In this document: positions 6,934 through 44,787 of the stretch, one piece after another
Layout: each line of letters starts with the position of its first letter
Numbering within the stretch: position 1 is the stretch's first letter
Virus record (IMG/VR): IMGVR_UViG_3300015360_000051
Coordinates: 1 to 57,181 of that record
DNA from: a virus
Lineage: Duplodnaviria > Caudoviricetes
Strand: one strand, 5' to 3'
Length of the DNA: 57,181 bases
Notes under the pieces: model-generated
Seen by the model: only the letters and a program-made list of their open reading frames with translations
What the model was told of the DNA's origin: nothing
Database searches by the model: none
Program-made: the position numbers and the translations under genes

Positions 6934-6960
6934 GCTCTGAGCAATAATCTAATTCGCTCA

Positions 6961-7275
6961 ATGCCGCTGAAGGAACCTACAAAGCAGACTCTTGCCCGCT
7001 ATGGCCTATCCGTACTAGAATGGCAGACCATGGCAGAGCAGCAAGAGTCTGCTTGTTATATTTGCAGAAAACAGCCTTCAACTGGTCGTCTCTGTATAGA
7101 CCACGACCACGCTAAGGGGTGGAAGAAGATGCCCCCTCGGCAGCGCGTGCTCTACGTGAGGGGGCTACTTTGTTGGGTCTGCAATCACTACTACGTAGGT
7201 CGCGGGATTTCCGTCGACAAAGCCCAGCAAGTCGTCAACTACCTTAAAGCGTACGAAGAAAGAAAACCCCGTTAA
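6961..7275 (+). CDS. Endonuclease VII-family nuclease
   Basis: CYIC...IDHDH...VRGLLCWVCN motifs. Confidence 0.88.
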   Translation: MPLKEPTKQTLARYGLSVLEWQTMAEQQESACYICRKQPSTGRLCIDHDHAKGWKKMPPRQRVLYVRGLLCWVCNHYYVGRGISVDKAQQVVNYLKAYEERKPR

Positions 7276-25266: not shown

Positions 25267-26286
25267 ATGGACAGTTTAGTGCAGCGAGAAGAAGTTGACG
25301 GGTGGACCAATCTAGCAATTGGTGACGCGGTGGTCGTGAGAGAGGCCTACAAACACAGTATCCCTACCTCACTCTCCCTGAGCGCCTCAGAGCTAGGTTA
25401 TCCTCCCTGTGACGGCCTGCCGGAGCTACAGGCAGCAATTCTGAAGTGGTGCATCTCAGAGGGTGTATGCACTGAGGACCACCCAGGACACGTCGTAATC
25501 ACTAATGGAGCCACTCAGGGTCTGTTAGCTGTCATCAGCGCCTACGAGGGGATTAAATTGAGCCCCCCTTACTGGCCTCGGATTCCGGTACTGGCAGACT
25601 TCGCAGGAGTCACTCTCAACAATGAGAAACAGGGCTCGGCCTGTCCGGAACTAATTACCTGGCCTAACAATCCATCCGGTTGCGAGTTCGGGACGAACGT
25701 AGCAGATGCGGACAGCGGTGTCATTTGGGACGCCGTTTACGCCTCTGAGATTTACGGATTCGACCCAGCCCTCGTGCCGTTCTTGCAACGGTCGGACGCT
25801 ATTATTGGCTCGGTGTCGAAAATCTTCGGGCTGAGCGGTCTTCGGGTTGGGTGGGTGCTGTTCAAGGACCGGGCTCACTGGGAAAAGGCGTCGCACTATC
25901 TGGAGACCTCCACGTCTGGGGTGTCGGTCATTTCTCAGCTATATACCGCTGACCTACTAGACCGCGTCAATAAGTTCCCGGCCATTTTCCAAAAAATCAA
26001 GAAACTAGCAAAAAAATCGCTAGAAACAAACAGCAGAATCATCCAGGATGTCGTTACCCCGTTTGCGTCGGCCGTCGGAGGCTCTATAGGCGGCCATGGT
26101 GGGCTTTTTGCGTGGTTCCGGCCTAGCAATTATGCCTCTTTCAAGGATGCGCTCAACCGCGCCAAGATTTTCATCGTGCGCGGGGACCTGTGTGGCTTTA
26201 CAAAAGAGTGGATTCGTATCAACGCCGGTGCCGATGCCGTCAAAATACAAGACTCTATGGGTAGGCTTGCAAAAGAACTAGGATGA
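25267..26286 (+). CDS. PLP-dependent aminotransferase class I/II
   Basis: TNGATQGL, PNNPSG, WDAVY, SVSKIFGLSGLRVGW (PLP Lys), terminal RIN. Confidence 0.88.
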   Translation: MDSLVQREEVDGWTNLAIGDAVVVREAYKHSIPTSLSLSASELGYPPCDGLPELQAAILKWCISEGVCTEDHPGHVVITNGATQGLLAVISAYEGIKLSPPYWPRIPVLADFAGVTLNNEKQGSACPELITWPNNPSGCEFGTNVADADSGVIWDAVYASEIYGFDPALVPFLQRSDAIIGSVSKIFGLSGLRVGWVLFKDRAHWEKASHYLETSTSGVSVISQLYTADLLDRVNKFPAIFQKIKKLAKKSLETNSRIIQDVVTPFASAVGGSIGGHGGLFAWFRPSNYASFKDALNRAKIFIVRGDLCGFTKEWIRINAGADAVKIQDSMGRLAKELG

Positions 26287-29352: not shown

Positions 29353-31326
29353 ATGGACGACGACTCCCTACCACTATCCTCCCGGGACGAAACAGAACTT
29401 AGACGTAAGTTTCTGTTTCGCATCTGCAAATCCAAGAAGGAGCTTCACGACTGGGTAGCTGTTTTCCTGGGATTGGACCTGCCAGACGGTATTGTGGACC
29501 AAAACTCTACCTCGTCCCCTATGTCCATGGTCTGGGAGATGTACTCCAAGATGCTGGAGGGCACTGACGAGAGCTTCATGCGGGTCCTGTACTATGCCAG
29601 CCGAGATTCCTTTAAGACCTTGTCCGCAGCGGTAATTGAAGTCCTAGCAATGTTGCATTGCAATCGAAACGTTGCTCATATGGCCGCCATCCAAGACCAA
29701 GCGTTAAAGGCGCAAGAGTATGTCAAGCGCTCGTTCAGGCGGCCTTACATCCGAGATTTCGTCGTCGGAAACAACGAACGGGTCACAAAGGTTTTACGAT
29801 ACTATCACCCCCATACTGAGCATTCCATTACGGGGGCCGAGTACGACGCTTTTGTTGCTGACGAGAGTGGCGAGTTCTCGACGATATCTAAGACCATCGA
29901 TGAATATATCGAGAAGGACCAATACGTTAAAATCGTCATCTGCACCCTAGCTGGTGCCAACAGTGAGCACGCCCCGCTATTCGTCATCGATGAGGTCGAT
30001 GTCGTCTCAAACCCGACAGCTTACGAGGAATCTCAAAACATTCCGGCTGGCCGTGGAAACAAGTTGCCTATTACTATGCTGACCTCGACGAGGAAACAGG
30101 CCTTCGGACTAGTCCAAAAAGAAATCGACAACGCCAACAAATCGGGCCTCAATATCCGGTCGTGGAACATCATAGACGTGACCGAACAGTGCCCTACGTC
30201 GAGGCATAAGCCGGACAAGCCTAAGATTCCTCTGTATGTTAGCTCTGAACATCTGAGACACGTTGACGTACAGACGTATCAGGCGATGAATTTCAAAGAG
30301 GCAGAAACCTACCTGCCAGTGGAGGGGTTTGCTGGTTGTAAATCGTGTAAACTGTTCCCGGCCTGCCGAGGGAGGCTCGCCACTAACCAGACATCTACCT
30401 CCCTAATGCTGAAGAGCATCCCGGAGACTATTGGCAAATTTAACGCCAATTCTACGGACATGGCCAAAGCGCAGCTTTTGTGCCTGAAGCCTTCCTCGTT
30501 TGGGTTGATTTATTCTCGGATGGATAAGACCCATCACGTCATCTCTCCGGCCCAGGCCCATCTAAAGATTTTCGGTGAACTGCCCGAAGACCCCTCTAAT
30601 TTTACAAAAGCAATGCTAATGGCCCTACTGGCCGAGACCAGGGCAGGTCAATTCATCGCAGGTATCGACTGGGGGCATTCTCATAATTTTGTTTATGTCC
30701 AGGCACTGAAAGATGGGTCCCGGTGCTTTGTGACCCATTTTGTATCGATGCCAGGATTGGACCCAGACCAGATGCTCGACGTTTGCGAACCGTATAAGAC
30801 GTTCCAAGCATCCGCCTTCCCGGACAATGCCGACCCCAAAATGGCCAAACTTTTCTCAAAAAAAGGCTACAACATCAAAAAGGCGACCAAAGGGGCGGGG
30901 TCAGTGGTGTCGGGAATCAACGTAGTGCGCTGGCTCCTAAGGCCTCCAGGGCAGGACGAGCCGAATCTGTATTTTATTCACGATATCGGCGAGGACCCCA
31001 TGATGGCGGAATCGATAAACCGCATCTGCCAATACCATTGGAAAAAAGACGCCGCCGGGCAGCCTACAGAAATACCGGCAGACGACGAAGACGACGAAGT
31101 TGACGCACTCCGTTACATGATTGTAGGGTCATTCAAATTAGCTGGAGGGTTGGCGGTGTCGAAATCCGATTTAGACAGCGACTCTCGCTACAAACCAGTA
31201 TACACGGAGGCGAATTGGATGAGTAAGGTGTTGAGGGAAAAAACGGGAAGCGATTATTCCGAGACCAACGACGAACCCCAAGGGGAAAAGAAGGGGCGAA
31301 ATAGTGGCCTGCTGTGGGATATCTAG
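29353..31326 (+). CDS. terL: Terminase large subunit
   Basis: Atypical Walker A SRDSFKT, FVIDEVD Walker B, TST coupling motif, GIDWG and DEVDALRY nuclease motifs. Confidence 0.88.
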   Translation: MDDDSLPLSSRDETELRRKFLFRICKSKKELHDWVAVFLGLDLPDGIVDQNSTSSPMSMVWEMYSKMLEGTDESFMRVLYYASRDSFKTLSAAVIEVLAMLHCNRNVAHMAAIQDQALKAQEYVKRSFRRPYIRDFVVGNNERVTKVLRYYHPHTEHSITGAEYDAFVADESGEFSTISKTIDEYIEKDQYVKIVICTLAGANSEHAPLFVIDEVDVVSNPTAYEESQNIPAGRGNKLPITMLTSTRKQAFGLVQKEIDNANKSGLNIRSWNIIDVTEQCPTSRHKPDKPKIPLYVSSEHLRHVDVQTYQAMNFKEAETYLPVEGFAGCKSCKLFPACRGRLATNQTSTSLMLKSIPETIGKFNANSTDMAKAQLLCLKPSSFGLIYSRMDKTHHVISPAQAHLKIFGELPEDPSNFTKAMLMALLAETRAGQFIAGIDWGHSHNFVYVQALKDGSRCFVTHFVSMPGLDPDQMLDVCEPYKTFQASAFPDNADPKMAKLFSKKGYNIKKATKGAGSVVSGINVVRWLLRPPGQDEPNLYFIHDIGEDPMMAESINRICQYHWKKDAAGQPTEIPADDEDDEVDALRYMIVGSFKLAGGLAVSKSDLDSDSRYKPVYTEANWMSKVLREKTGSDYSETNDEPQGEKKGRNSGLLWDI

Positions 31327-31347
31327 CCTCAATCTTTAGTTGACCAT

Positions 31348-32325
31348 ATGTCATCGCTAAACCGCTCTTGCCACGCAGTAATTTTTGAGGATTCCCTATC
31401 CGCGTCTAATTCCCCCCAACGTAGGGTAGCGGACTGGAAACGGGTGAATCAGAACATACCCGTGTCTAACCCCAAAAGCCAAATTGTGGAAGTAGCCCCC
31501 CTGGCGGAGGTTCAGCTTTTTTCGGGGACTCGGTCTCTGACTACCGATAACACTACTGAGTACGCATTGGCGCTAGTATCAAGCTCTACCTACAGAATCA
31601 GGTGGACGGGCACTGGGGCAGCTCCTGGGTTCAGGGTTGACCGAAACGTTGCCGTCACTGGAGGCAACGCCATCGTGACCCTGAACGCGAACCAGACTGT
31701 AACAGTGACTCACTCGGCCGGTGCCGTTTTTGGGGCGGTCGTAGCTGGAGACTCGGTTCGTATTCCGGGCGTTGTGACCAACGAAACAGCGGGGCCTTTC
31801 GATTCATTAAACCAGGGTAACTGGGCGGTTCTGTCCGCCACCGCGACGACTTTGGTATTATCTCGGGCTAGCGGTACCGTATTCACAGGGAGAACTGAAA
31901 CGGTGGCAATTACCAACAATAGCCAGTTCATCTCTTATTCCTCTGCTGGGGTTCAGGTAGGCGACACTATTGACATTGCGGGGGGTTTCTCCGTCCCCAC
32001 TCGTCAGGGATTTGTAGTTTCTCAAGTTACCTCGTCGATGGTCGAATTCGTTTCGACAGTCCCCCTAGCTCAAGAAACTGTCATTCCTGGAGTAGCGGCG
32101 TTTGTGGTTTATTCTTCCTCTAATAGATACCTCTATATCGAGACCAACCAGGCTTGCGCGATTAAGCTCAATGGCGCTATTGACGAAACGAACAGAGTGG
32201 ACCCCATCATTGCCGGGGACCAATCAAAGGTTGGTTTTTTTGAAAAGTGGGGGCCAACGTACTCTCTTTCCGTCAAAAATAGAAGCACGAACATCGCCAC
32301 AATCACGGTCTTCACGGCGGAATAA
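31348..32325 (+). CDS. Putative virion structural protein (beta-rich)
   Basis: Thr/Val/Gly-rich, between TerL and portal. Confidence 0.65.
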   Translation: MSSLNRSCHAVIFEDSLSASNSPQRRVADWKRVNQNIPVSNPKSQIVEVAPLAEVQLFSGTRSLTTDNTTEYALALVSSSTYRIRWTGTGAAPGFRVDRNVAVTGGNAIVTLNANQTVTVTHSAGAVFGAVVAGDSVRIPGVVTNETAGPFDSLNQGNWAVLSATATTLVLSRASGTVFTGRTETVAITNNSQFISYSSAGVQVGDTIDIAGGFSVPTRQGFVVSQVTSSMVEFVSTVPLAQETVIPGVAAFVVYSSSNRYLYIETNQACAIKLNGAIDETNRVDPIIAGDQSKVGFFEKWGPTYSLSVKNRSTNIATITVFTAE

Positions 32326-32327
32326 AA

Positions 32328-34400
32328 ATGTCTGAAGCAGAAAAAAAAACAAACAATAGAGTCATTTACGGCCTAGCGAAGGGCGAAGGTCGTTTGACTG
32401 CGACAGCCTTCGTCAGGACTCCTCTGTCGAAAAGTATCCTCAACATTTTAAATGGAGAGGAGGGCTCAGTCGAGCGACTGGCATTCGAGGTAGACCCCTC
32501 GTTACACAGTTCTCTAGCCGGAGTCTATCAGCCCAAGACTCGCGGTATCCCTGACGATATTTTGAAGCGTATTGCGGTTCAGGACTCCCTAGTCTCGAAC
32601 ATAGTGAGGGCTCGTCAGAACCATATCGGAGTATTCGGACACCCACGTCACGACCGGTTCAGCGTTGGTTTTACGCTTGAGCCTAACACTGGCATCATCG
32701 ACACAATGGATGATGGGCAAAAAAAGACCTTCAACGATGAAATCGACAAGGCAGTCCGATTAATCTACAATTGCGGGCACACTCATGGGATGGCAGACCA
32801 TGACAAATTAAATTTTTCAGAATGTTTAGTCCAGCTAGCGAGAAACGCCGTAGTTAATGGGCGTATCGCTATCGAAATAATTAAGACAGGGACTGACAAC
32901 GACAAAAAATTTCACCACTTTGCTCCAATCGACGCTGGCACAATCTACAAGGCCACTGAGAACAACGATGCGGCCCAAAGCTCACTTAGAGAAGGGGCGT
33001 ATCACACCCTCTGTCAGGTCACAGGGAAGAAGCTCATAAAAGAAAAATTTCTAGCTGATGAGTACAGGTGGATTCAGGTTATAGCAGGTCGACCCTATGC
33101 CGCATTCACCAGCGACGAGGTCAAAACATATAACTTCTACGCAGTACCGGATGTCGAGTGGAACGGATATCCCGTCACGCCTATCGATACGGTAATCACC
33201 TCGATTACGACTCATATAAATATCGTAAACCACAATCGACTTTATTTTCAGTCCGGGCGTGCAGCGAGAGGTATGCTGGTTATTACCTCAGACGACATTA
33301 ATCCGTCAGTCATCGGGAATATCAAACAGCAATTTAACGCCTCGATTAACTCCACCAATAACGCTTTCCGTATGCCTGTGTTTGGTTGTGGTACGGGCGA
33401 CCAGATTCAGTGGCAGCCAATTGACAGTGGTGGCGGCAAGGACATGGAGTTCCAATACCTGACCGACATGAACGCTAGAGAAATTCTAACTGCGTTCATG
33501 ATGTCGCCGGATGAGTTGCCGGGGTGGTCGTACCTCTCCAGAGGGACTTCCAATCAGGCACTAAGCGAGGGGAACCAGGAGTACAAACTGACTGCCGCTA
33601 GAGACGTTGGAATTCGCCCCCTCCTTCAGGGGTTCGAGGACTTTTTCAACACCAACATTATGGGCCTAATCAACTTAGAACTTTCCAAAAAGGTAAAGTT
33701 GAGGTTTGTGGGTCTTGACGCAGACAACGCAGAAAAAGAAGCCGTCCGACTCCAACAGGATATGTCGATTTGGGAGACCTACGACGGCCTGATGAAACGT
33801 GTTGAGCGAGACCCACTAGGCGCAGATTGGGGAGGTAGTCTCCCATTCAATCCGAATATTAAGGGGTATATCGACCAGTATTTTACGGTAGGTGAGATAT
33901 TGGAAAAATTTTGCGGCAGGCAAAACGCGTCCAAGGACCCTAATTTAGCATATAGACGCGACCAGTATTTTTTCCAGTGGATACAGATACAACAGGCTCA
34001 ACAGCAGCAGGCTATGGCTCAGCAACAACAGCAGGCTATGGCTCAGCAACAGGGTCAAGCTGAGCAACAGGGTGGTCAAGCTGAGCAACAGGGTGGTCAA
34101 GCTGAGCAACAGGGTGGTTCCAATAATCCCGAGCAGACCGAAAACCAAAAAAACCAAGCAGCCGAACAGTCGTCAGCTTCTGGTGGTGCAGAAGGGGCCG
34201 GGAACGCTCTAGCCCGCAGCATAGACCAGGCCCTCGATAGCTTGACAAAATCTGAAAAAGACCTCCCACCAGGTAAGCGCAGAATCCTTGCTCAGCAGAA
34301 AAAGACGGTAGAGCATTTCCTGCACGGGTGGGAAGAGGACTCTAAGCACGCCATCAAAGAAATTCTAGAAATCGCCGAACATCACGGCAAAAAAAGATAA
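32328..34400 (+). CDS. Portal protein
   Basis: IDAGTI, GYPVTPI, YFQSG..ARGML, DMEFQ, FMMSPDE, GIRPLL motifs; position after TerL. Confidence 0.9.
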   Translation: MSEAEKKTNNRVIYGLAKGEGRLTATAFVRTPLSKSILNILNGEEGSVERLAFEVDPSLHSSLAGVYQPKTRGIPDDILKRIAVQDSLVSNIVRARQNHIGVFGHPRHDRFSVGFTLEPNTGIIDTMDDGQKKTFNDEIDKAVRLIYNCGHTHGMADHDKLNFSECLVQLARNAVVNGRIAIEIIKTGTDNDKKFHHFAPIDAGTIYKATENNDAAQSSLREGAYHTLCQVTGKKLIKEKFLADEYRWIQVIAGRPYAAFTSDEVKTYNFYAVPDVEWNGYPVTPIDTVITSITTHINIVNHNRLYFQSGRAARGMLVITSDDINPSVIGNIKQQFNASINSTNNAFRMPVFGCGTGDQIQWQPIDSGGGKDMEFQYLTDMNAREILTAFMMSPDELPGWSYLSRGTSNQALSEGNQEYKLTAARDVGIRPLLQGFEDFFNTNIMGLINLELSKKVKLRFVGLDADNAEKEAVRLQQDMSIWETYDGLMKRVERDPLGADWGGSLPFNPNIKGYIDQYFTVGEILEKFCGRQNASKDPNLAYRRDQYFFQWIQIQQAQQQQAMAQQQQQAMAQQQGQAEQQGGQAEQQGGQAEQQGGSNNPEQTENQKNQAAEQSSASGGAEGAGNALARSIDQALDSLTKSEKDLPPGKRRILAQQKKTVEHFLHGWEEDSKHAIKEILEIAEHHGKKR
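33995..34117 (+). repeat. In-frame Gln-rich tandem repeats in the portal C-terminus
   Basis: AMAQQQQQ units and 21-bp units caagctgagcaacagggtggt x3. Confidence 0.85.
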
Positions 34401-35206
34401 TGAAGTTTTTCATCGGCCGGGCGGCCGTCAAGGCCATTCATTCAGCGATAGAAGCGCTTTTTGTAAGAGCTAAACAACGTCTGCTAGCGCGTAGAGGGCC
34501 TAAACAAATAAGGGTCTCGGTCAGCTCCAAGCCTGTAGGTATCCGGGTAGACCTCAGCATTCCGGGGCTGTATCATAGCTCGTCAGAAGAAGAGGGTTTC
34601 CAGGGGTCCAACCATATCGAGAACTCCCTGAGCCGAGTCGTCGAAGGTTATATGGATGCACACCAAGAATTGGCTAAGGTCCAAATGGTTAATGCGGTCC
34701 AGAACTGGCTGCACGAGGCCGAGACCAAAAAAATCAAGACGGACCTCAACACTGTCCTAGGTGGAGAACTCCACGAATTGATGGGGAAGGTCACAAGTAA
34801 CGTCACGCGCATCGTGGGCACAGAGGCAACAAGAGCCAGGAACACCGGCTCGGTGGACGCTATTAGTAGGATTTCTGCGTCAGCCAGTGAATCTGACCCT
34901 AATGTATTTTTCGTCATAGTGAGAGACGAGCACGTCTGCGAGGAATGCCTAGAAATGCACCAATTGGACGGGACACTTTCCGGTCCGCCTAAGGTTTATA
35001 AACTGTCTGAAATAGGGCACGGGTACCACAAACGAGGGCAGACGGAGCCTAAGGTAGGAGGGCTGCACCCCCATTGCCGGTGTACTCTGTGCCGTCTAGG
35101 TTCCGGATACGGATTTGACGGCGGAGGCATGGTAAAATTTATCGACGTAGGGCACGACGAATATAAAAAGCAACGAGGAGAGGGTGACGAGGGTGACGAA
35201 GGATGA
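34400..35206 (+). CDS. MuF/SPP1 gp7-like minor head protein
   Basis: TEATRA, DEHVCEEC, HPHCRC; directly after portal. Confidence 0.85.
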   Translation: MKFFIGRAAVKAIHSAIEALFVRAKQRLLARRGPKQIRVSVSSKPVGIRVDLSIPGLYHSSSEEEGFQGSNHIENSLSRVVEGYMDAHQELAKVQMVNAVQNWLHEAETKKIKTDLNTVLGGELHELMGKVTSNVTRIVGTEATRARNTGSVDAISRISASASESDPNVFFVIVRDEHVCEECLEMHQLDGTLSGPPKVYKLSEIGHGYHKRGQTEPKVGGLHPHCRCTLCRLGSGYGFDGGGMVKFIDVGHDEYKKQRGEGDEGDEG

Positions 35207-35899: not shown

Positions 35900-36033
35900 T
35901 GTCAAGAAATTTTGTGGAAAAAGTGGATAATGTCGTAACAATATTGCTGGTAATCCTCATTGGCGTTCTGGCCGTCTCGACTCTAGCGCTAGTAGCATGT
36001 TTCGGTTATCACGTTTTGGTCGGCATCTCCTAA
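35896..36033 (+). CDS. Small membrane protein (45 aa, not in ORF track)
   Basis: GGAGG SD, ATGA overlap, TM segment VVTILLVILIGVLAVSTLALVACF. Confidence 0.6.
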   Translation: MMSRNFVEKVDNVVTILLVILIGVLAVSTLALVACFGYHVLVGIS

Positions 36034-36149
36034 TGTTATTGGTGGGGTTTTCGCTTTTCTGTTTTCTTGTGCTGGAGTTTTTTTTTGGAGTCAAAAAGTG
36101 GTGCCCGCGTGCGTTAGAGGCTGACCTAAAAGAGAGCAGGGCTTTAAAG

Positions 36150-37127
36150 ATGTCGTCGTTCAAGGTCAGAATCGTAAGGTTCCCAAAGTGCGGAAAACAC
36201 CCAAACGCCGACACTCTATGCATCGTCCATATCCTAGGGTACCAGGTCGTAATGAAGACCGGCCTCTTCAGAGAGGGCGACTGGTGCGTCTACGTCCCGG
36301 CCGACGCCCTAGTTCCCCTAGACCATCCGACTTTTCAGTTCCTGAAAACGCCTGATTCGTCCAAGACTCATTCAAGAATTCGTCCGCGAAAGTTGCGTGG
36401 TATTTTTTCGATTGGGTTTATTATCCCGTTGCCGCCCGGAACGGGAGTGTCGCCTCCCGAAGAGGAGGAGGTCACCAAGGCCCTAGGAATCACTCTCTGG
36501 GAGCCCACAGAGACATACGCTCTAGATGGCAGGCAGGCCAGTCCACCAGACCTTTTTTGCCCGATTTATCAAATCGAACCGCTGTGGAATTCTCCAGACG
36601 CCATTAAGGAAGGCGAAATGGTGTGGATTACCGAAAAAATCCACGGCTGTAATACCCGATTCTGTGTCGACCATTCCGGTAATTTTCATGTCGGGTCTCA
36701 TAATTGTTTTTGGTTAGACTCTGAGGCAAATGTATGGTGGAAGACTTCGAGAGCTTACCCTGAATTAGAGCAGGCTTGTCGGGAAAATCCGGGATGGACC
36801 ATCTACGGCGAAACGTACGGGGTCCAAGATTTAAAATACGGTCTGAAGAATGGGCAAACCGCCTTTGCCGCCTTTGCCGTCTTTGCCGGTTCTGCCTGGT
36901 TGAGTCCGGACGCATTGAGCGACTTTTGTCAGCGATACAAAATACCTACGGTCCCTCACCTATACACAGGACCGTTTAACCTTCAAAGCACCAAGGATTT
37001 AATCAAGCTCTCTGTCCTCTCCGACCATATGATGGAGGGGGTTGTCATTGTCTCAGAACGCGGAGCCCCTCTCAAGCTCCACGGAGAGGAGTACCTGCTG
37101 CGCAAGAACGGGACAGAAGCAAAGTAA
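36150..37127 (+). CDS. RNA ligase, Rnl2/DRB0094-type with N-terminal OB domain
   Basis: HPNADTL N-domain, TEKIHGCN motif I, IYGETYG, MEGVV, LK; longer in-frame starts at 35997 and 36033. Confidence 0.87.
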   Translation: MSSFKVRIVRFPKCGKHPNADTLCIVHILGYQVVMKTGLFREGDWCVYVPADALVPLDHPTFQFLKTPDSSKTHSRIRPRKLRGIFSIGFIIPLPPGTGVSPPEEEEVTKALGITLWEPTETYALDGRQASPPDLFCPIYQIEPLWNSPDAIKEGEMVWITEKIHGCNTRFCVDHSGNFHVGSHNCFWLDSEANVWWKTSRAYPELEQACRENPGWTIYGETYGVQDLKYGLKNGQTAFAAFAVFAGSAWLSPDALSDFCQRYKIPTVPHLYTGPFNLQSTKDLIKLSVLSDHMMEGVVIVSERGAPLKLHGEEYLLRKNGTEAK

Positions 37128-37163
37128 TCGATTGAAACTTAGGGTAACAATCTTTTCGATAGC

Positions 37164-40100
37164 GTGGCTGACCAGAAACCTAAAAAATCTACGGGAATGC
37201 TCATCGATGGCGTTTTCGCATCCGAAGCTATTGACAGCTCAGGCGAAATCGTATCAATAGAAGGCATGGACGTGACCACCATAGAAGAAGGGTGGGGTGT
37301 AGCAAATTATGAACACCTAGACGAAAAAGGTGGCTACGGCAGGGAAATTGTTGGCAAGATAGTAAGTGTCAAGAAAATTTTCACCGAAGGCGATTGCGAA
37401 AACGACCGTCAGAAGGAATACTTCAACAAAATCAAGAAGATTCCTTACCTATATGGCATAGTCAGACTCTATGACGGAGCAGGCCACGAAGGAGCCAAGG
37501 CATTAGCGGCTCAAATCCGAGACGCCGTCGCCAACGACGAGGAAATTATCGTACGATATTCGATTGAGGGGTCGACTACAAAAAAGACCGACAATCGAAT
37601 CGAAGAATCAATCGCAAAAAAAGTTGCGATGACTTTAAGACCATGTAACAAAACCGCTATTTCCGGTCTCATGGACGACCCGAACGCTCCGGACGGGTTC
37701 GACACTGTGCATAAGGCGGAGAGGCAGTTCATCGACCCGGAATTTTCCCCTCTAGGGGCCTCGACCGCGCTGGCATGCAACCCCTGTATGGACCGACAGG
37801 CCGAGGCTCAGATGCGCCTCCTAGGGTCATTCGCGAAGCTCAAGGCTCTCGCCAAGACTACTACCGCCGGGAACTATGACGTTGCCCCTTCTGCTCTTAC
37901 AGGCGGTGCAGCCCTACAGGTCGAAGACCTAGGGAGAACCGTAAGGAACACCGCCAAAGCCGTACTGAGAGACTACGGGTGGGGCACCTTCGATAGAGAT
38001 AAGTTCAAAAAATTTGCGAAATCAAAGTTACCGGAGATGTCCGATGACTTTATCAACCATTTCACTGACGTAGCATCAGATTTTGCCATCCGGAAGGCTA
38101 TCCAGAAGGGCGAGCTGTCGAGGACCTTTGAACCACTTCAGAAAAAACTCGCAACGGAACCTAAAGGCGGTGAGGCAGCCGCAGCACCGGTAGTCGGTAC
38201 TATTAGAGGCAAAAAAATTCGCCCCAATGTCGGGATGGTAGGTTCGTCCTTTGACTCGAAAAAGGGGGTGCTGCATACGGCTATAGGTAGCTTTAAGGCC
38301 TACCTTCCCCATAACGACGGCCCTGACTCCGCCGAAAACTACAATAACATCCTCAAGAGTCCAAAAGTGGAAGACGCTTTAGACCATGCTATGTCGAATT
38401 GGTCAAAGGTTCATCGCCTCAATAAGGCAGGCAAGTTACCACCCGAAGTATTGATGCACGCCGTCATGTTTTCCCAACTGTCTCCCAACAGGGCGGTACC
38501 GGTTCAGGAAATACAGTTTGCTCGAATGGTTGACGCGATGAAGGCATCTGGCCTAGACCCGCGCAAAAAGGGTTTCGAGGCAATCCTACCCAAAATGCGG
38601 GAACTCGACCATCCTACCAACGCCCCCGACACCGGGAGGGAGGCCATCGAATCGAACCTCGCCTACTATATCGGCGGCAAAAAAGGCGTCGAATATGGCA
38701 CTAGCGGCGAAAAGCTAGGACTTAGGTCCAAGACGAATAGATATCCGGGAGAGTTACATTCAGTCGAATCGTTAATCGGCACAAGCATCTCAAACATGTC
38801 TAAATATCATGGACTCCACGACGGTCTAGTAGATATCCTCCACAGACACCGTACTGACTCGGTAGGGGCGGTCGGAGAGCTGCTGGAAAATAAGAGACTA
38901 TCCAGAAACTGGTTGATGACGAATAAAAAAAATGGAGGTGACCCATCGGTCAACCCGCATTCGTCTGTTCCTGGGCTAGCCGCCAAAACAGGCCTGTATA
39001 CCTGGGGTATGATTGGTGGCGGCAACTCGGTAGTCCCGGATACGCACTTCATCCGGAACATGTTCGGACTTGACGTAACCAAGGATGCGAAAACGCTTTT
39101 CTATTTGAAAAGTAATATTTTGCAATCTGACGGAATCAAGCCACTGACTGAATACAACCATTGGTTCGCTAAGAATCATCCATCGGTCCAGTACACACTG
39201 AACCACCCCAAATGGGGCAGCACTTTTGAAAAGCCGGAAGACGCCATCTTTCCAGCATTCTGGCGCCATTGGTTAGCTATTGCTCCCCATGAGAAGTCAT
39301 TAGGGATGCGAAGCTACTCTAATCAACAGGGGACAAACCACGCTCCATTTTGGGAGGCTATTGCCCCGCACGTAGACCCGTTGTTGAAGGCCACCGGCCA
39401 AGGAGATTCCTCAATCCCCTTCAGGACCGCCATTCTACATCAACAGTACGTTAAGGACTACGGCGAGGTCCCCGGGATGTTCCTGTACTACCACCATATA
39501 GTACCCAAGCTACTAGAAGCGGCCAAGGTTAGAGAGAGAATTGGCGACGACCTAAAATTTCTCGCCAAGGCTAGTAAAATCGAGGCTGGGCTAGTAAACC
39601 TGCGTAAGGCTATCTCGGATGCTATTGAACCGTGGCAGCCTCCTCAAGTTCACAACGTCGAAATTAGCATCAAGGGCCGGAACCACCCTGCTGGGCGATA
39701 CCTCATCCACAACGGGAGACTCCACCACCTGGAGGATTATCACGGGATTCTGAGTTCCTTCTTGCCCGAAGGCGACCTCGACGTTGAGGCGGTTAGTCGG
39801 CTAAATGGCCTACAGTGGTCATCCAAACTTCATACTACTCCTCATTATCCTGTCATTGCACCACCTCCTCAGGCCGGTCAGGCTCAGGCTCAGGCTCCAT
39901 CGTACCGGGTGTCCTCTCTATCTGCTCAGGAGCCTAGACCTCCATCAGTATTCGAGTACCACCGCGTCGGAATGTCTCAGCCTCATATCGTGGAGGTAGG
40001 CGGAGGCGGAGCATCACTAGATGGTCGGAAAATCTCTGACCCCGAACTCCAGTTGATTTTGAGAAATGCCGAAAACGGTATTGCAAAAATAAAATACAAG

Positions 40101-40817
40101 CAGTCTCCCGCAGGGCTAAAAAAGGCCGACGACGAGACCCCCGTAATGTCTCCCGACGAGGTAATGCAGCATATCCAGGAGGCAGTCGCTCAAGGACATG
40201 TATCCGCAGATGTTGAGCGAGCCTATCGTCAGCATATTTATGGCGACGCGATGGTTTCAGGAGTCGGTAACAAGTACGCCTATACACAATTCCGGAACCA
40301 AAACAAGCCCGGCGTTTGGCTCTCAATGGACGCAAACAGCTTCAAGCACGTCAACGACAGTCACGGACACGAAGCGGGTGACCACGCAATCAAAGCGGTC
40401 GGAGGCGCGATTAAAAATGCAGCGGCAGTGGTCGGGACTGGTAAGGTGTTTCGCCCGGGTGGCGACGAATTCGCCGCCTATTTCCCCTCCCACGAGGAGG
40501 CATCTAGATTCATGAGGCACGCGACTACCCATTTAGACGCCGTACCGCCCGTCGCCGGGACGCACAAACTGTCCATGAGTTTTGGGGTTGGTGCCGATTT
40601 CCCAACTGCTGACAAAGCACTGTTGCTGGCCAAGGAGCAGAAAAAAGACCCTTTGTCGGGCAGGTTGATGTATCATCCTACCAATACTCCCCATCTAGCG
40701 CATAGCCTGATGCCAGGAAATGAAGGACCGGTGGGCCTACACAGTAAGGCGCCGCATCCAGCAACTATCCCGACCGGGGCAGGGGCAGGGGCAGGGGCAC
40801 CGCCCACAAATCCTTGA
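37164..40817 (+). CDS. Prohead protease fused to capsid-N-arm mimic, HhH glycosylase-like domain and GGDEF domain
   Basis: DSSGE, NYEH, YSIEG protease motifs; PGLAAKT...VPDTHFIR; DANSFKHVND.HGHEAGD...RPGGDEF. Confidence 0.88.
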   Translation: MADQKPKKSTGMLIDGVFASEAIDSSGEIVSIEGMDVTTIEEGWGVANYEHLDEKGGYGREIVGKIVSVKKIFTEGDCENDRQKEYFNKIKKIPYLYGIVRLYDGAGHEGAKALAAQIRDAVANDEEIIVRYSIEGSTTKKTDNRIEESIAKKVAMTLRPCNKTAISGLMDDPNAPDGFDTVHKAERQFIDPEFSPLGASTALACNPCMDRQAEAQMRLLGSFAKLKALAKTTTAGNYDVAPSALTGGAALQVEDLGRTVRNTAKAVLRDYGWGTFDRDKFKKFAKSKLPEMSDDFINHFTDVASDFAIRKAIQKGELSRTFEPLQKKLATEPKGGEAAAAPVVGTIRGKKIRPNVGMVGSSFDSKKGVLHTAIGSFKAYLPHNDGPDSAENYNNILKSPKVEDALDHAMSNWSKVHRLNKAGKLPPEVLMHAVMFSQLSPNRAVPVQEIQFARMVDAMKASGLDPRKKGFEAILPKMRELDHPTNAPDTGREAIESNLAYYIGGKKGVEYGTSGEKLGLRSKTNRYPGELHSVESLIGTSISNMSKYHGLHDGLVDILHRHRTDSVGAVGELLENKRLSRNWLMTNKKNGGDPSVNPHSSVPGLAAKTGLYTWGMIGGGNSVVPDTHFIRNMFGLDVTKDAKTLFYLKSNILQSDGIKPLTEYNHWFAKNHPSVQYTLNHPKWGSTFEKPEDAIFPAFWRHWLAIAPHEKSLGMRSYSNQQGTNHAPFWEAIAPHVDPLLKATGQGDSSIPFRTAILHQQYVKDYGEVPGMFLYYHHIVPKLLEAAKVRERIGDDLKFLAKASKIEAGLVNLRKAISDAIEPWQPPQVHNVEISIKGRNHPAGRYLIHNGRLHHLEDYHGILSSFLPEGDLDVEAVSRLNGLQWSSKLHTTPHYPVIAPPPQAGQAQAQAPSYRVSSLSAQEPRPPSVFEYHRVGMSQPHIVEVGGGGASLDGRKISDPELQLILRNAENGIAKIKYKQSPAGLKKADDETPVMSPDEVMQHIQEAVAQGHVSADVERAYRQHIYGDAMVSGVGNKYAYTQFRNQNKPGVWLSMDANSFKHVNDSHGHEAGDHAIKAVGGAIKNAAAVVGTGKVFRPGGDEFAAYFPSHEEASRFMRHATTHLDAVPPVAGTHKLSMSFGVGADFPTADKALLLAKEQKKDPLSGRLMYHPTNTPHLAHSLMPGNEGPVGLHSKAPHPATIPTGAGAGAGAPPTNP

Positions 40818-41415
40818 GCTTGAGGCCCGTATAGGAATTGTCACTGACCTCTGCCTTCAACGCGTTGGAGAAGGCCTTTGCGTTTTCGAGGTCTCGGAAT
40901 CTGTAGCCCATCGCGTAGAACTTCAGGCACCGACTCAACAATCCCTCCGTCGAGGATTTAGAGAAGTTCGACAAGAAATTTAACGTCCTGCTGTTTACGT
41001 CTTCCAGGAAACTCGAATGAGCTAGTACCTGGGGGTGCCCGTATTCCGTGTAAAAGAGTGAAGCGGAACAGTTAGTAAAATCGAACCCGACCCCCTCCGC
41101 GACACTGACTGGGTTGTACCAGCGGAACTTCACCAACTGGATAGGGACCTCCAGCGGTCTGGACCAGATTGGGCAACCCTTCGGCCCGTTTTCTTCGTAT
41201 CCGTTTTTGGTCAGAATACTCTCCGCTTCCTCTACTATTCCCTTGAAATTGTCTTCAAAAAAAATGTCGATATCTGTTGGAGGAACCTTCTCTACGATGG
41301 AGCGGAGATATCCGCCCGATACGTGAATTTTTGAGGACCTGCTCAGAATCGAGCGGACCGGTTCTGGGAGGGCGTGAAAAGCTTCTACGGCGAACTCTGG
41401 CAGTATCTTTGACAT
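40765..41415 (-). CDS. Nucleotidyltransferase, CCA-adding/poly(A) polymerase head-like
   Basis: VSGGYLRS...TDIDIFF...FDFTNC motifs. Confidence 0.8.
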   Translation of the reverse strand: MSKILPEFAVEAFHALPEPVRSILSRSSKIHVSGGYLRSIVEKVPPTDIDIFFEDNFKGIVEEAESILTKNGYEENGPKGCPIWSRPLEVPIQLVKFRWYNPVSVAEGVGFDFTNCSASLFYTEYGHPQVLAHSSFLEDVNSRTLNFLSNFSKSSTEGLLSRCLKFYAMGYRFRDLENAKAFSNALKAEVSDNSYTGLKLKDLWAVPLPLPLPRSG

Positions 41416-41457: not shown

Positions 41458-41790
41458 TTATTTAGCCTGGCCGCCACGACAGGCCTTGCAAGTGCTGCTC
41501 CGGCCATAGAAGGAGAGATATAGGGGCAATAACTTGTTGCATTTTTTGCAATGCCGGAGGCCGGAATCGTCATTGCAAAGCTTGCAAATTTTATTGATGT
41601 CTAGTCTGCGGAATTGCTGACAGCAGGCGCATTGCGTTTTGTATTTTTCGGAAAAGTACAACGCGCTTCGACATTTTTTACATCTCGATGTTACTGCCCT
41701 GTTACGGTCATCTGATTTAAATTCGTGAAATGCTTCTCGCCCTAATTCGAGTTGGCATCCGGAGCATTTGTATTTTACGTCGTCAGTCAT
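41458..41790 (-). CDS. Multi-CxxC zinc-finger protein
   Basis: Six CxxC-type motifs; ATG 41790 preceded by CAATCTT. Confidence 0.7.
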   Translation of the reverse strand: MTDDVKYKCSGCQLELGREAFHEFKSDDRNRAVTSRCKKCRSALYFSEKYKTQCACCQQFRRLDINKICKLCNDDSGLRHCKKCNKLLPLYLSFYGRSSTCKACRGGQAK

Positions 41791-41930
41791 CAGTTTAAAG
41801 ATTGACGCTCTTTTGTATCGACAGAAAATCAATCTAATAGGAAGTAAATGGGCGCTTTTTTAGTGCTCTTCGCAGCACCTTCAAAAAAAGGACGCTGCCT
41901 CAAAATCAGATAAATGGAGAATTAGAAAAA

Positions 41931-42398
41931 ATGCCAACTACATACAAAGCCATTGCGAGCCTCCGCGAATTGGTAGACCTGCTTAAGAAATCTTGCACCA
42001 CGCTTCCGGTCATCACCGAGTCGTTCGACTCGAACGAAGACCCCGTCGTCACCCTTAGTGCCGATGCTACACCCGCTGCTGGAGAAAAAGTGGTTGTGCT
42101 ACGGATGAAGGCAATCGGCGCAATCGGCGCCAGAGACATTTTTGGTAACGTGGCTCAACAGTTTAGCCACCATGTTATTCAGATTTGTACAGAGGCGAAC
42201 CCGGCCGCTGGCGCAGGGGCAGACATCCTCACTCCCGCTGAAATCCTCCCGATTGTTGTCGAGTGCGGCCGAAAAGGGTCCTTCGTCGAGTGGTATACGA
42301 CGGCTGCTACAGTGATTCCGTCGACTGCGGCGATGGTTGCTGGAAACCTCCGTTCGACCTGGAGAGACCTGTACTGGAACGTCAGCAAGGCTGGTTAA
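41931..42398 (+). CDS. Putative head-associated structural protein
   Basis: GGAG SD; first gene of the scaffold/MCP unit. Confidence 0.65.
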   Translation: MPTTYKAIASLRELVDLLKKSCTTLPVITESFDSNEDPVVTLSADATPAAGEKVVVLRMKAIGAIGARDIFGNVAQQFSHHVIQICTEANPAAGAGADILTPAEILPIVVECGRKGSFVEWYTTAATVIPSTAAMVAGNLRSTWRDLYWNVSKAG

Positions 42399-42435
42399 TC
42401 CTTGGTTTCTCCCTGCAAAGAAAGGTTATGAAACC

Positions 42436-43371
42436 ATGAAAAAATTGTCAAAATCGCAAATCTCAAAGATTTTGGAGGAGGTCACTAATGACGTGGCCGA
42501 ACTTCTGAAATCAGAGGCTGAAGAGGCTGTTGCGCTCAGTAAAGCAGACCCCGGGAAAGAGACGGCTGCTGAAGCTACCCCCTCCGGTAGCTCGACAGAG
42601 GAGTCTTCGGCTCCTCCGCCTGAAATGTCCGCTAGCCCTCCGGCTGGCGAACCTGATGGTGGTGGTCTAGAAGGCGGTCCAGAAGGTAGTCCAGAAGGCA
42701 GTCCAGAAGGTAGTCCAGAAGGTAGTCCAGAAGGCGGTCCAGAAGGCGGTCCAGAAGGCGGTCCAGAAGGTGCAGACGGCGGTCAGGAAATGTCGCCCGA
42801 AGCTCTCCAGGGCGAATATTCGCAACTGCCCATCGAAGAACTCAAGATGCATTTTTTGGCGGCGAAAGCCGCTCTCGAAGCTGCATTGCAGGGTGGTGGT
42901 GGTGGTGCAGGGGCTCCAGAAGCTTCGGCTCCTCCGGGTGCTCCTCCGGGACCTCCGGGTGCTCCTCCGGGTGCTCCTCCGGGTGCTCCTCCGGTTCCAG
43001 GCACGGACAAGCTGGAACTCAAAGAGGTTAAAAACTCTTTGGCGGACCTCAAGAAAAACGTATCAGCTAAGGACGCAGAAATCCTGGAGTTGCGGAACAA
43101 ACTCGACCAGTTAGTTACTGGATTTGAGGGAATTCTGACTCGTCAACAGGTTTTGCGCAAGTCGGCAAGAGATTTGTCCTCATTCGCACCTGCGAATGGT
43201 GATGATACTGTCGTCGACATCTCTAATCTGTCCAAAAAAGAAATCGTAGCGAAGCTTAGTGAGGTCACTGCTTCGACCAACAAACTAACTAAATCAGACC
43301 GTGACCTCATCAACCGCTTCGTGGTATCCGATTCAGTGCCCGCTGAGTCCGTAGCCAAGTTCTGCAAGTAA
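42436..43371 (+). CDS. Probable scaffold protein
   Basis: Acidic Pro/Gly-rich low complexity plus coiled coil, many LxKS/A motifs, directly before MCP. Confidence 0.7.
   Translation: MKKLSKSQISKILEEVTNDVAELLKSEAEEAVALSKADPGKETAAEATPSGSSTEESSAPPPEMSASPPAGEPDGGGLEGGPEGSPEGSPEGSPEGSPEGGPEGGPEGGPEGADGGQEMSPEALQGEYSQLPIEELKMHFLAAKAALEAALQGGGGGAGAPEASAPPGAPPGPPGAPPGAPPGAPPVPGTDKLELKEVKNSLADLKKNVSAKDAEILELRNKLDQLVTGFEGILTRQQVLRKSARDLSSFAPANGDDTVVDISNLSKKEIVAKLSEVTASTNKLTKSDRDLINRFVVSDSVPAESVAKFCK
42669..42770 (+). repeat. 12-bp in-frame tandem repeat (EG[G/S]P)n
   Basis: ccagaaggyrgt about x8; second 12-bp (PPGA)n run at about 42930-42992. Confidence 0.9.
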
Positions 43372-43389: not shown

Positions 43390-44787
43390 ATGGAAACAGT
43401 AGATAAAATCAACTCCCTTATCAAGGCGATGGAGGCTGGCAATTACGATGCCGCTCCTTCCACTCTGACCCAGGGTGGAGCCCTCCAAATCGAGGACCTG
43501 AGCCCCGTCATGAACAACGTCACGTTCGAGGAAGCCAGCCTGAAGCTCCAGAAGAAAATGACCGTTAAATCGTGCAAGTCAACCCTCGCACAGTTTGACC
43601 GTCAGCTTTCGTACGGTAACTTCGGGGGGTCGGCCCAGCTCGAAGGTAACGTTGGTCAAGAAGACACGAGTGACTTCGTTCGTTCGACCGTCCCGATGGC
43701 ATTCTACAGCTCGACTCGTCGGGTTACGATTGCGTCGACGATGGTGGCTACGGTCGATGGCATTTCGAGCGACGACCGCGCCGCCGCTGACGCTGCGAAG
43801 AAATTGGCTGGAGACATCGAATTCGACCTCTTTCGCGGGTTGGATGATTTCTCGAACGCTGGTGTATTCGATGGCAATCCTCTCGTTGTTCCAAACCTCC
43901 CGAATATTCACGGTGTGGGCCTGCAAATCCGTCAGTCGGATTTTCAAGTCAATTCGCGTGACCTCATGTTTGCGGAGTATGGTTCGGATGACTCGGTCAT
44001 CATCTCCGGTGGTGGTGTCGCACTGACTCAGGACAAGGTTGAAGACTCGGCCGTTCGTTCGGCCCTGAATTTCGGCACTGCTGAATCGCTTCTGATTGAC
44101 CCGATTTCGTTGTCTGCGTACAACAAAATCTCGTTTGGTAAGGAACGTATCATCCTGGCTGGTTCGCCTCAAGAGGCCACTGGCGCCGAGCTACGGAAAC
44201 AGTGGGTTTCGGTTGGCACTGTCAACGTAGAGTCCAGCAATTTCCTTCGTGGTAAAAGCAAGCCCGCCCGCACTCGACCGAACGGCCCTGCCGCTCCTTC
44301 GATTACTGGCGCTGCTAGCGGTGGTGGTGCGTTGGGTGCCGGTACGTACGTATACTACGTATCGGGCTTCAATGAGGTTGGTGAATCGGCTGGTTCGACT
44401 TCTATCGCGGTCGTCGTCTCTGCTAACGAAAAGGTCACACTCACAATCACGCATAGCGGCGCAGGCACAACTACGAGAGGCTTCAACGTCTATCGTTCGG
44501 GTGCTGGTGGCACGGCTGTGTCAGCTAAGTTCATTGGTCGCGGTACGACCACTGCTAACTCGGCAACCACCGATTTCGTGGACCTTGGCAACAAGGTTCC
44601 CGGATTCGTTACTGGATACCTAATCCAGAAGGACACGATGGAAATGAAGGAGTTGGCCCCGTACAGCCGTCTAAAGCTGGGCGTTGCCGACCTTTCGACT
44701 CCTGAGGCTCACTTCCGCTTTACTTGTCTTGCGATGCTTCAGCCCCGCAAGAACGTAATTTTGGATAACCTGAAGGGGACGTTCTAA
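43390..44787 (+). CDS. Major capsid protein (SPO1/Twort-like, with Ig/FN3-like insertion)
   Basis: LIK|AMEAG...GGALQIEDL N-terminus as in Herelleviridae-type MCPs; TYVYYV...N..GES...FNVYRS...FVD insertion; strong terminator after. Confidence 0.9.
   Translation: METVDKINSLIKAMEAGNYDAAPSTLTQGGALQIEDLSPVMNNVTFEEASLKLQKKMTVKSCKSTLAQFDRQLSYGNFGGSAQLEGNVGQEDTSDFVRSTVPMAFYSSTRRVTIASTMVATVDGISSDDRAAADAAKKLAGDIEFDLFRGLDDFSNAGVFDGNPLVVPNLPNIHGVGLQIRQSDFQVNSRDLMFAEYGSDDSVIISGGGVALTQDKVEDSAVRSALNFGTAESLLIDPISLSAYNKISFGKERIILAGSPQEATGAELRKQWVSVGTVNVESSNFLRGKSKPARTRPNGPAAPSITGAASGGGALGAGTYVYYVSGFNEVGESAGSTSIAVVVSANEKVTLTITHSGAGTTTRGFNVYRSGAGGTAVSAKFIGRGTTTANSATTDFVDLGNKVPGFVTGYLIQKDTMEMKELAPYSRLKLGVADLSTPEAHFRFTCLAMLQPRKNVILDNLKGTF

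Follow-up and report, generated by a model that had tools for sequence, protein, structure and literature searches.

Why should the gene for a phage capsid maturation protease carry a bacterial second-messenger synthase at its far end? The question is raised by IMG/VR record IMGVR_UViG_3300015360_000051, a linear sequence of 57,181 bp (GC ~50%; CheckV completeness 35%) that we analysed over its whole length and refer to as the window. One open reading frame (ORF) of its head module, lying between the portal gene and the genes for a scaffold-like protein and the major capsid protein (MCP), encodes a polyprotein with, from the N- to the C-terminus, a protease domain, a propeptide-like linker, a domain resembling HhH-GPD DNA glycosylases, two small beta (alpha/beta) domains and a GGDEF diguanylate-cyclase domain (Table 1). 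Translation may start at GTG 37164 or at ATG 37197 (M12), the residue with which the ESM Atlas entry of the polyprotein begins. The source is an uncultured relative of Myxococcus phage Mx1, with an Mx1-like genome of about 160-170 kb; the leads to its host are this kinship and a 163.6-kb contig binned in a Myxococcales metagenome-assembled genome, which was the sole match in species-representative genomes. Our answer is a tentative one, somewhat short of probable: the polyprotein would be loaded into the procapsid and cut after Glu, its cargo would be ejected, and the cyclase would make cyclic di-GMP (c-di-GMP) in the host free of feedback.

A preliminary description of this DNA had proposed an intact GGDEF domain, and its two quoted motifs lie at amino acids (aa) 1056-1073 (D-A-N-S-F-K-H-V-N-D-S-H-G-H-E-A-G-D, nucleotides 40329-40382) and 1097-1103 (R-P-G-G-D-E-F, nucleotides 40452-40472). 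The identification held far beyond chance. Pfam family PF00990 matched at E 2.3e-14 (53.9 bits against a gathering cut-off of 23.8) and was also matched in 25 of the 37 family members scanned. Searching PDB sequences at E<=0.01, we obtained 29 matches, the best being 5m3c (1.5e-9); 28 have names of the diguanylate cyclase, GGDEF, response-regulator or motility-regulator type, and one was deposited as an ammonium transporter. With an AlphaFold2 (AF2) model of aa 790-1217 (76 aligned sequences; mean predicted local distance difference test score, pLDDT, 88.7), Foldseek returned 97 PDB matches at E<=1e-3, and the top rows listed were diguanylate cyclases or GGDEF-domain proteins. Employing VIA-align, we found the best match to be SiaD (Z 18.1; root-mean-square deviation, rmsd, 2.2 Å over 155 residues). 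Ranks 1-30 were all GGDEF-domain chains, whereas class III adenylyl/guanylyl cyclases reached Z 13.6 at most and the mCpol palm (9mnr) Z 11.9. As modelled, the domain is of the GGDEF diguanylate-cyclase fold and is nearer to true diguanylate cyclases than to other palm cyclases.

The Pfam alignment spans profile positions 25-132 only. To count residues, we aligned the window protein with 75 GGDEF-bearing homologues (n=76) at 35-57% identity. Because both the opening motif (as the variant D-x-M-x-x-G-x-G-N-K, with D1028, G1035 and N1036 in 76/76) and the closing motif (A-D-x-A-L-x-x-A-K, with K1157 in 76/76) are present, the domain is complete despite the partial span. The catalytic positions align with the same residues in 5m3c and in a WspR variant, and they are nearly all kept: D1056, N1064 and H1069 in 75 sequences each, D1073 in 73, R1097 (directly before P-G-G-D-E-F) in all 76 and K1160 in 75, while in the signature itself G1100 and D1101 are invariant, G1099 and E1102 occur in 75 and F1103 in 62. 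From work on PleD and WspR, D1056 is a metal ligand, N1064 and D1073 read the guanine, and K1157 and K1160 hold phosphate; K1160 presumably stands at the position of PleD R446, with Lys for Arg. GGDEF proteins of the Hypr type, which make cyclic GMP-AMP, have Ser at the position of D1073. The Asp found here favours c-di-GMP under this guanine-specificity rule, in line with what had been proposed from the GHxxGD motif. Conservation of the catalytic set is so nearly complete that it points to purifying selection, the pattern of an enzyme under selection. Apparently, judging from these residues, the domain is a catalytically competent c-di-GMP synthase.

The cyclase had also been described as lacking the RxxD inhibitory site (I-site). 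Its place is taken by V-G-T-G at aa 1090-1093, and G1093 stands opposite the Asp of R-S-S-D in the alignment with the WspR variant. Neither column has a majority of Arg or Asp among the 76 homologues: column 1090 holds V in 41, A in 12, T in 11 and S in 8, and column 1093 holds G in 51, T in 9, I in 6 and V in 4. Judged by this alignment, the RxxD I-site is absent family-wide. The I-site is frequent in GGDEF proteins but does not define them, and many lack it, so its loss is unremarkable on its own. The missing site is therefore weaker evidence of a special, feedback-insensitive enzyme than had been implied.

Compared with the bacterial diguanylate cyclases SiaD (7e6g), DgcB (6ttr), SadC (4wxo), WspR (3bre/3i5c), PleD (1w25) and DosC (4zvg), the window domain has the fold in common (Z 16-18, rmsd 2-3 Å, 140-160 residues) and the same GG[D/E]EF and metal-, base- and phosphate-binding residues. 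It differs from them in having no sensor, no receiver domain and no RxxD, in carrying an H-S-L-x-P-G-x-E-G-P extension, and in being part of a phage head polyprotein. The extension is well ordered (pLDDT 96-98), with P1176 and S1181 invariant in the 76 sequences, and its motif was seen only after GGDEF.

The fusion of cyclase and capsid protease is genuine. Both lie in one ORF, as had been described, but some 850 residues with further domains intervene, and the earlier account had missed the HhH-GPD-like domain, the two small domains and the capsid-propeptide-like linker. At E<=1e-3, 187 homologous proteins came up; the list of the best 120 has 119 besides the window's own. The protease, middle domain, small domains and GGDEF occur together in 60 of these 119, and 12 more lack only the middle domain; the fusion thus recurs in 72/119 listed homologues, from several sources. 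Another three are N-truncated, and 44 have other C-terminal extensions in place of the GGDEF unit. Among the 37 members scanned, we found GGDEF in 25, a PI3/PI4-kinase-like domain in 9, intein and Hint families in 2 each and an ADP-ribosyltransferase in 1. An IMG/VR scan gave 30 loci, of which the best 18 were examined; the other 12, in which the match was confined to the GGDEF core (30-43% identity), were excluded. In 12 of the 18 the fusion is a single frame, and in 6 the small-domain and cyclase unit forms the ORF next after the protease, so that the unit is fused to or directly follows the protease gene in 18/18 loci and in Mx1.

Contigs from two microbial-mat metagenome runs not marked as the source of the record cover 39147-40764 (X3) and 37100-40151 (X4), mostly at >=99% identity and with no insertions or deletions listed across the stretch; an X4 piece over 40269-40900 has 6 gaps, and a short repeat at 40765-40808 is skipped. 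An origin of the fusion in chimeric assembly or in a frameshifted pseudogene, for which one might cite a single linear metagenomic fragment of 35% estimated completeness, is practically out of the question given the 60 full-length and 12 short homologues, the 12/18 IMG/VR loci and the contigs of these independent runs. Both fusion and fission have occurred within a fixed gene order. Covalent attachment to the protease is not required, as six split loci and Mx1 indicate.

In Mx1 (OR576727.2), three adjacent genes stand where the window has one: WNM70322.1, a 'putative prohead protease' of 1,239 aa; WNM70323.1, a hypothetical protein of 150 aa; and WNM70324.1, a 'nucleotide cyclase' of 243 aa whose motif is also GGDEF. 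By BLAST, the window protein is 37% identical to them over aa 9-827, 27% over aa 843-972 and 38% over aa 1025-1204, the second segment matching the 150-aa protein. The synteny of the head module (terminase, portal, protease, cyclase, scaffold-like, MCP) equals that of the window. The Mx1 protease protein ends in an extra region of ~380 aa; in 9/37 related proteins scanned there is a PI3/PI4-kinase-like domain. Mx1 infects Myxococcus xanthus and has a GC content of 55.5% against 68.8% in its host, according to the portion of its genome announcement available (PMC10720576), in whose text the words 'cyclase' and 'protease' have 0 occurrences.

We assigned the N-terminal domain as a prohead serine protease because of its fold, its invariant His and Ser, the position of the gene, and the annotation by the Mx1 depositors. 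In an AF2 model of aa 1-840 (62 sequences, pLDDT 83.0), VIA-align against 48,161 PDB representatives matched the protease part (aa ~4-172) to T4 gp21 (5jbl; Z 8.8, rmsd 2.7, 124 residues) and the herpesvirus proteases of varicella-zoster virus (Z 7.9), human cytomegalovirus (Z 5.8) and Kaposi's sarcoma-associated herpesvirus (Z 5.3). Against BFVD, Foldseek returned 56 entries at E<=1e-3, many of which bear the name prohead or capsid-maturation protease (E 1e-5 to 7e-4); against the PDB, the 840-aa model had nothing at E<=1e-3, the best entry being the human cytomegalovirus protease at E 0.11 (probability 0.96). H51 and S133 are invariant in alignments of 62 and 105 sequences. S133-I-E-G is in register with S140-S-R-G of gp21, just past a weak hhalign match (37 columns, E 0.011, probability 3.7%) that we use as a hint of register only; it came from aligning the N-terminal profile with T4 gp21 in local mode, and global mode gave nothing. 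No protease family was matched by the window protein in Pfam (E<=1; S77/S78/U35) or PHROG (E<=0.1), nor by the 37 members scanned at E<=0.01.

A further tie to the capsid lies in the linker behind the protease. Searching the record with the whole polyprotein, we found aa 222-263 to be 50% identical to aa 3-44 of the MCP (E 1.4e-7), with the common consensus K-A-x-E-A-G-N-Y-D-x-A-P-S-x-L-T-x-G-G-A-L-Q-x-E-D-L. The linker is predicted to be disordered (pLDDT <50 at aa 231-257); in 62 sequences K231 is invariant, and A235, G236, P242, L245, G248, A250, L251 and E254 are kept in at least 90%. The same pair of motifs is found in Mx1, in the protease linker and at the MCP N-terminus. With a pattern made strict on purpose, 9 of 20 sources had the motif in the MCP and 5 in the polyprotein. 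Within the window, long frames with A[LIVM]QxE number only three, all head proteins: the polyprotein, the MCP and the scaffold-like protein. The T4 literature, in the portion of the review available, describes gp21-type proteases as cutting after Glu and N-terminal propeptides as capsid-targeting sequences (PMC9026906). By analogy, the linker is a candidate capsid-targeting and Glu-specific self-cleavage site. A second candidate precedes the cyclase in a disordered segment (pLDDT <50 at aa 984-990), where L985 is kept in 69 of the 76 sequences, K987 in 73 and E/D at 989 in 63. This motif, which may be a cleavage or targeting signal, lies where Mx1 has a gene boundary, and the separate Mx1 cyclase has a similar D-L-K-K-M-D near its N-terminus. 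We found no Shine-Dalgarno start before the cyclase unit, which is uninformative, as most genes of this phage have no such motif.

From procapsid entry to c-di-GMP, we infer the following course. Made late, alongside the scaffold and capsid proteins, the polyprotein would enter the procapsid by its protease domain, by the MCP-like propeptide segment, or by both. The protease would cleave after Glu in the disordered linkers and release the enzymatic cargo, which would remain in the filled head and be ejected with the DNA into the next host. There the cyclase would join two GTP into c-di-GMP without product feedback and shift c-di-GMP-controlled host behaviour early in infection. The fusion probably serves capsid loading of the glycosylase-like domain and the cyclase. 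Delivery into the host is proposed by analogy with T4, whose Alt and internal proteins, as given in the part of the review at hand, are loaded in this manner and ejected into the host (PMC9026906). The likeness extends to details: gp21 is the nearest solved structure to the window protease, the window candidate would likewise be cut after Glu, and T4 Alt is an ADP-ribosyltransferase, a domain that one member of the window family also has. It ends at gene organisation, since the T4 cargo proteins (Alt, IPI-III) are, in the same part of the review, separate genes with short N-terminal targeting peptides (PMC9026906), whereas the window cargo is fused to the protease. The variation of the C-terminal module between GGDEF, kinase-like and ADP-ribosyltransferase domains is in the manner of delivered effectors.

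Several points weigh against this course of events. Delivery, cleavage and enzyme activity are proposed, for the whole family, from sequence, models and analogy. In view of the split forms, packaging cannot depend on covalent fusion alone, and the separate cyclases (in Mx1 and 6/18 loci) have no recognisable ALQxE propeptide. The protease domain had weak Foldseek scores in the PDB and no sequence-family match. In the cyclase, Lys occupies the presumed R446 position. GGDEF enzymes act as dimers, and we identified no dimerising element for this one; a homodimer prediction with two copies of aa 828-1194 scored 0.00 against a mark of 0.42, which speaks neither for nor against dimerisation. According to the available text on T4 assembly (PMC9026906), the head is usually cleared of prohead proteases and scaffold fragments once it has matured, and the cargo could be degraded or expelled too.

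The last point also bears on another explanation, possible but on balance unlikely, by which the cyclase is active but undelivered and works late in infection in the producing cell, either within the free polyprotein or as a protein of its own. It would raise c-di-GMP during head assembly, for example to change motility, pili or surface polysaccharide in ways that save progeny from being wasted on debris or hold the infected cell near its neighbours; its position next to the protease would then be a matter of both being expressed late. The gene does lie in a late head operon, its catalytic residues are conserved, the cyclase is separate in Mx1 and 6/18 loci with no obvious targeting peptide, and prohead proteases normally digest themselves and leave the head (PMC9026906, in the part available). 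A cytoplasmic enzyme, however, has no evident need of an MCP propeptide in its polyprotein, of a unit always fused to or directly after the protease gene (18/18 loci and Mx1), or of frequent in-frame fusion (72/119 listed homologues and 3 N-truncated ones); and the exchange of the C-terminal module with ADP-ribosyltransferase and kinase-like domains is typical of injected effectors.

We consider it improbable that the enzyme makes another nucleotide, or that its c-di-GMP is directed mainly against cyclic-nucleotide immunity (the cyclic-oligonucleotide-based anti-phage signalling system, CBASS; type III CRISPR; decoy-nucleotide systems). GGDEF is a palm relative of Cas10 and mCpol, with the latter (9mnr) at Z 11.9, and one family member matches the Cas10 palm2 at 1.5e-4; but true diguanylate cyclases score Z 14-18 and other palm enzymes 13.6 at most, and both guanine-reading residues, N1064 and D1073, are of the canonical kind and conserved. 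The M. xanthus regulon of CBASS and type III-B that stops Mx4 fails to stop Mx1, and the authors of that study suggest, in the text available, countermeasures in the larger Mx1 genome (PMC11506125). This insensitivity is circumstantial only, and nothing ties the Mx1 phenotype to the cyclase gene. Interference with host nucleotide signalling was proposed for phage polyvalent proteins by Iyer, Burroughs, Anand, de Souza and Aravind in 2017, in the part of their paper available (PMC5512222).

Very improbable, too, is a catalytically silent domain with a structural, GTP-binding or scaffolding role in the head. Many natural GGDEF domains are degenerate, and the window domain has Lys at 1160 for R446 (an equivalence we assume) and a divergent opening motif, D-x-M-x-x-G-x-G-N-K. 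All positions for metal, base and phosphate, however, are kept in 73-76 of 76 sequences at 35-57% identity, which would not be expected of a structural module.

The polyprotein also finds a place among known phage proteins. With at least two unrelated enzymatic domains in one phage polypeptide (protease, glycosylase-like and GGDEF), it is a multi-enzyme polypeptide of the kind that Iyer et al. call polyvalent proteins; its packaging into virions and delivery are putative. As far as the available part of that paper goes, several unrelated enzymatic domains per phage polypeptide are predicted to be delivered on invasion, as proposed here, and GGDEF is listed as an occasional domain; the occurrence of GGDEF in such proteins and the idea of interference with nucleotide signalling are therefore known (PMC5512222). 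A prohead-protease carrier or the architecture of the window protein is not described in that part, where 'prohead protease' appears once, in the reference list (PMC5512222). In a search that did not cover subscription journals and supplementary files, no paper came up that describes a fusion of prohead protease and GGDEF or a diguanylate cyclase carried in the virion.

A bolder form of the delivery proposal, which we think doubtful, makes the Mx1-like prohead protease a built-in cargo loader. Whichever enzyme is fused behind the propeptide-like linker (GGDEF cyclase, PI3/PI4-kinase-like domain, ADP-ribosyltransferase or HhH-GPD glycosylase) would enter the procapsid, be freed after Glu and be injected, and the I-site-less cyclase would flood the host with c-di-GMP in seconds, before phage gene expression. 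If this were true, it would be the first virus that delivers a ready-made bacterial second-messenger synthase, which could freeze social motility based on pili and exopolysaccharide, block superinfection, or blunt cyclic-nucleotide immunity; the last would fit the insensitivity of Mx1 to the CBASS and type III-B island.

Many bacteria, Myxococcus among them, regulate motility, exopolysaccharide and development through c-di-GMP. A head-borne synthase free of feedback could rewrite host behaviour at the instant of infection. Effects on motility, biofilm and nucleotide immunity, raised already in the preliminary description, are speculation. Swappable cargo fused to a protease would offer a simple natural means of bringing proteins into capsids, of relevance to phage engineering, and the family is large (187 matches, on contigs of up to ~200 kb). 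Since Mx1 can be cultivated on M. xanthus DK1050, packaging, cleavage, activity and phenotype are directly testable.

Table 1. Coordinates of the polyprotein, its parts and the neighbouring head genes in the window
Feature	Position	Strand	Evidence or remark
Upstream head module: large terminase, unknown ORF, portal, Mu-F-like minor head protein	29353..35206	+	
Head-module polyprotein, one ORF of 1,217 codons (P0001)	37164..40817	+	
Prohead serine protease domain, aa ~12-175	37197..37688	+	Fold, H51/S133, position
Disordered linker, aa 222-263, repeating the N-terminal propeptide of the MCP (…AGNYDxAPSxLTxGGALQxE/DL, the slash marking the candidate cut)	37827..37952	+	
HhH-GPD superfamily DNA-glycosylase-like domain, aa ~380-726, with K608 and D626	38301..39341	+	VIA-align, hhalign
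Two small alpha/beta domains, aa 828-894 and 928-978	39645..40097	+	AF2, pLDDT ~95
L-x-K-x-[E/D] motif, aa 985-989, in a disordered acidic linker of variable length before the cyclase	40116..40130	+	
GGDEF diguanylate-cyclase domain, aa 1028-1160, without RxxD I-site	40245..40643	+	Pfam, PDB, AF2, Foldseek, VIA-align
Ordered family-specific extension P-x-L-A-H-S-L-x-P-G-x-E-G-P, then a Pro/Ala/Gly-rich tail	40689..40733	+	
Scaffold-like low-complexity protein with A-L-Q-G-E	42337..43371	+	Syntenic with Mx1 WNM70326
MCP, propeptide motif at 43396-43521	43390..44787	+	phrog_752 at 1.9e-43

The middle domain (aa 380-726) came up as a glycosylase fold with VIA-align only, not with Foldseek against the PDB. 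Its best match was the 8-oxoguanine glycosylase Tm1821 of Thermotoga maritima (3n0u; Z 13.7, rmsd 3.3, 208/209 residues), a Z value that by VIA-align's own note is at the edge of the chance range for helical models. Next came QNG1, hOGG1, Mag1, EndoIII, MagIII, ROS1, NTHL1, MutY and AlkA, about 20 HhH-GPD entries at Z 6.3-8.8. Employing hhalign, we compared the family profile with Escherichia coli Nth (E 0.0012, probability 19%, 33 columns), and S-V-P-G-L-A-A-K608…V-P-D626-T-H-F-I-R aligned to Nth 113-145, with K608 at K120 and D626 at D138. K120 and D138 are the catalytic residues of EndoIII; in the window family D626 is invariant and K608 is kept in at least 90% of the sequences. The domain thus has the fold of HhH-GPD glycosylases, and its helix-hairpin-helix and a Lys and an Asp, 18 residues apart, align to those of EndoIII, but it is only ~11% identical to these glycosylases and has extra insertions. 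No PF00730 match was found in the window protein or the 37 members scanned with Pfam, and a PDB profile search, in which the query homologue rows were full length, returned GGDEF entries only.

In some homologues, inserts of 300-650 aa break the glycosylase-like domain at its most conserved segments. They lie at window aa ~442-453, next to the conserved S440-P-N442, in P0010, P0012, P0028, P0083, P0091, P0107, P0120 and P0122, and at aa ~620-627 in P0032 and P0052; Intein_splicing or Hint families were detected in some of them. Inteins usually occupy the active sites of important enzymes, and their placement here suggests that the middle domain is a working enzyme. The two small domains always precede the cyclase and are retained in the short forms without the middle domain. 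An ESM Atlas look-up of aa 825-985 gave no usable match for them.

GGDEF-like matches in Pseudomonas Yuavirus genomes were set aside as small stand-alone early-gene ORFs that are not head-module fusions. An example is 6941-7411 of Pseudomonas phage Psa21-HRN (L005), to which matches H4-H10 may be added; these ORFs of Pseudomonas aeruginosa phages are ~156 aa long, ~31% identical to the window domain and annotated as hypothetical only.

The head genes of the window follow the order large terminase, unknown ORF, portal, Mu-F-like, RNA ligase, polyprotein, two minus-strand ORFs, scaffold-like and MCP. The RNA ligase (35997-37127, plus strand; PF09414 at 3.2e-22, phrog_968) and the first minus-strand ORF (216 aa, 40765-41415) are absent from the corresponding place in Mx1. 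The latter has weak nucleotidyltransferase-like PHROG matches and overlaps the last ~50 bases of the polyprotein ORF. The second (124 aa, 41458-41832) is rich in Cys, with repeated C-x-x-C pairs like those of zinc ribbons, and matched no family. A Pfam search at E<=1 of the neighbours at 40768-41415 (minus), 41461-41832 (minus) and 41931-42395 (plus) gave nothing credible. The scaffold-like protein has long P-E-G-S/G and P-P-G-A repeats, and its Mx1 counterpart is likewise of low complexity. Inside the MCP ORF, ARAGORN called a 100-nucleotide 'tRNA-Val' (44316-44415, plus strand) that is probably a false positive.

Downstream, a 2,067-aa ORF (50544-56747, plus strand) has NUDIX (3.2e-21), PBECR5 nuclease-like (2.1e-7) and PI3/PI4-kinase-like (2.4e-10) domains and is a classic polyvalent protein in the sense of Iyer et al. 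The kinase-like unit that the protease protein bears in Mx1 and other relatives sits here in this NUDIX protein. The replication and metabolism half of the window includes a B12-type ribonucleotide reductase-like ORF (7275-9152, plus strand) and an aminotransferase/alliinase-like ORF (25267-26286, plus strand). DNA polymerase III alpha is apparently split into two abutting plus-strand ORFs: 12929-14695, with PHP and the start of the NTPase domain, and 14696-17188, with the rest of the NTPase domain and the finger domain.

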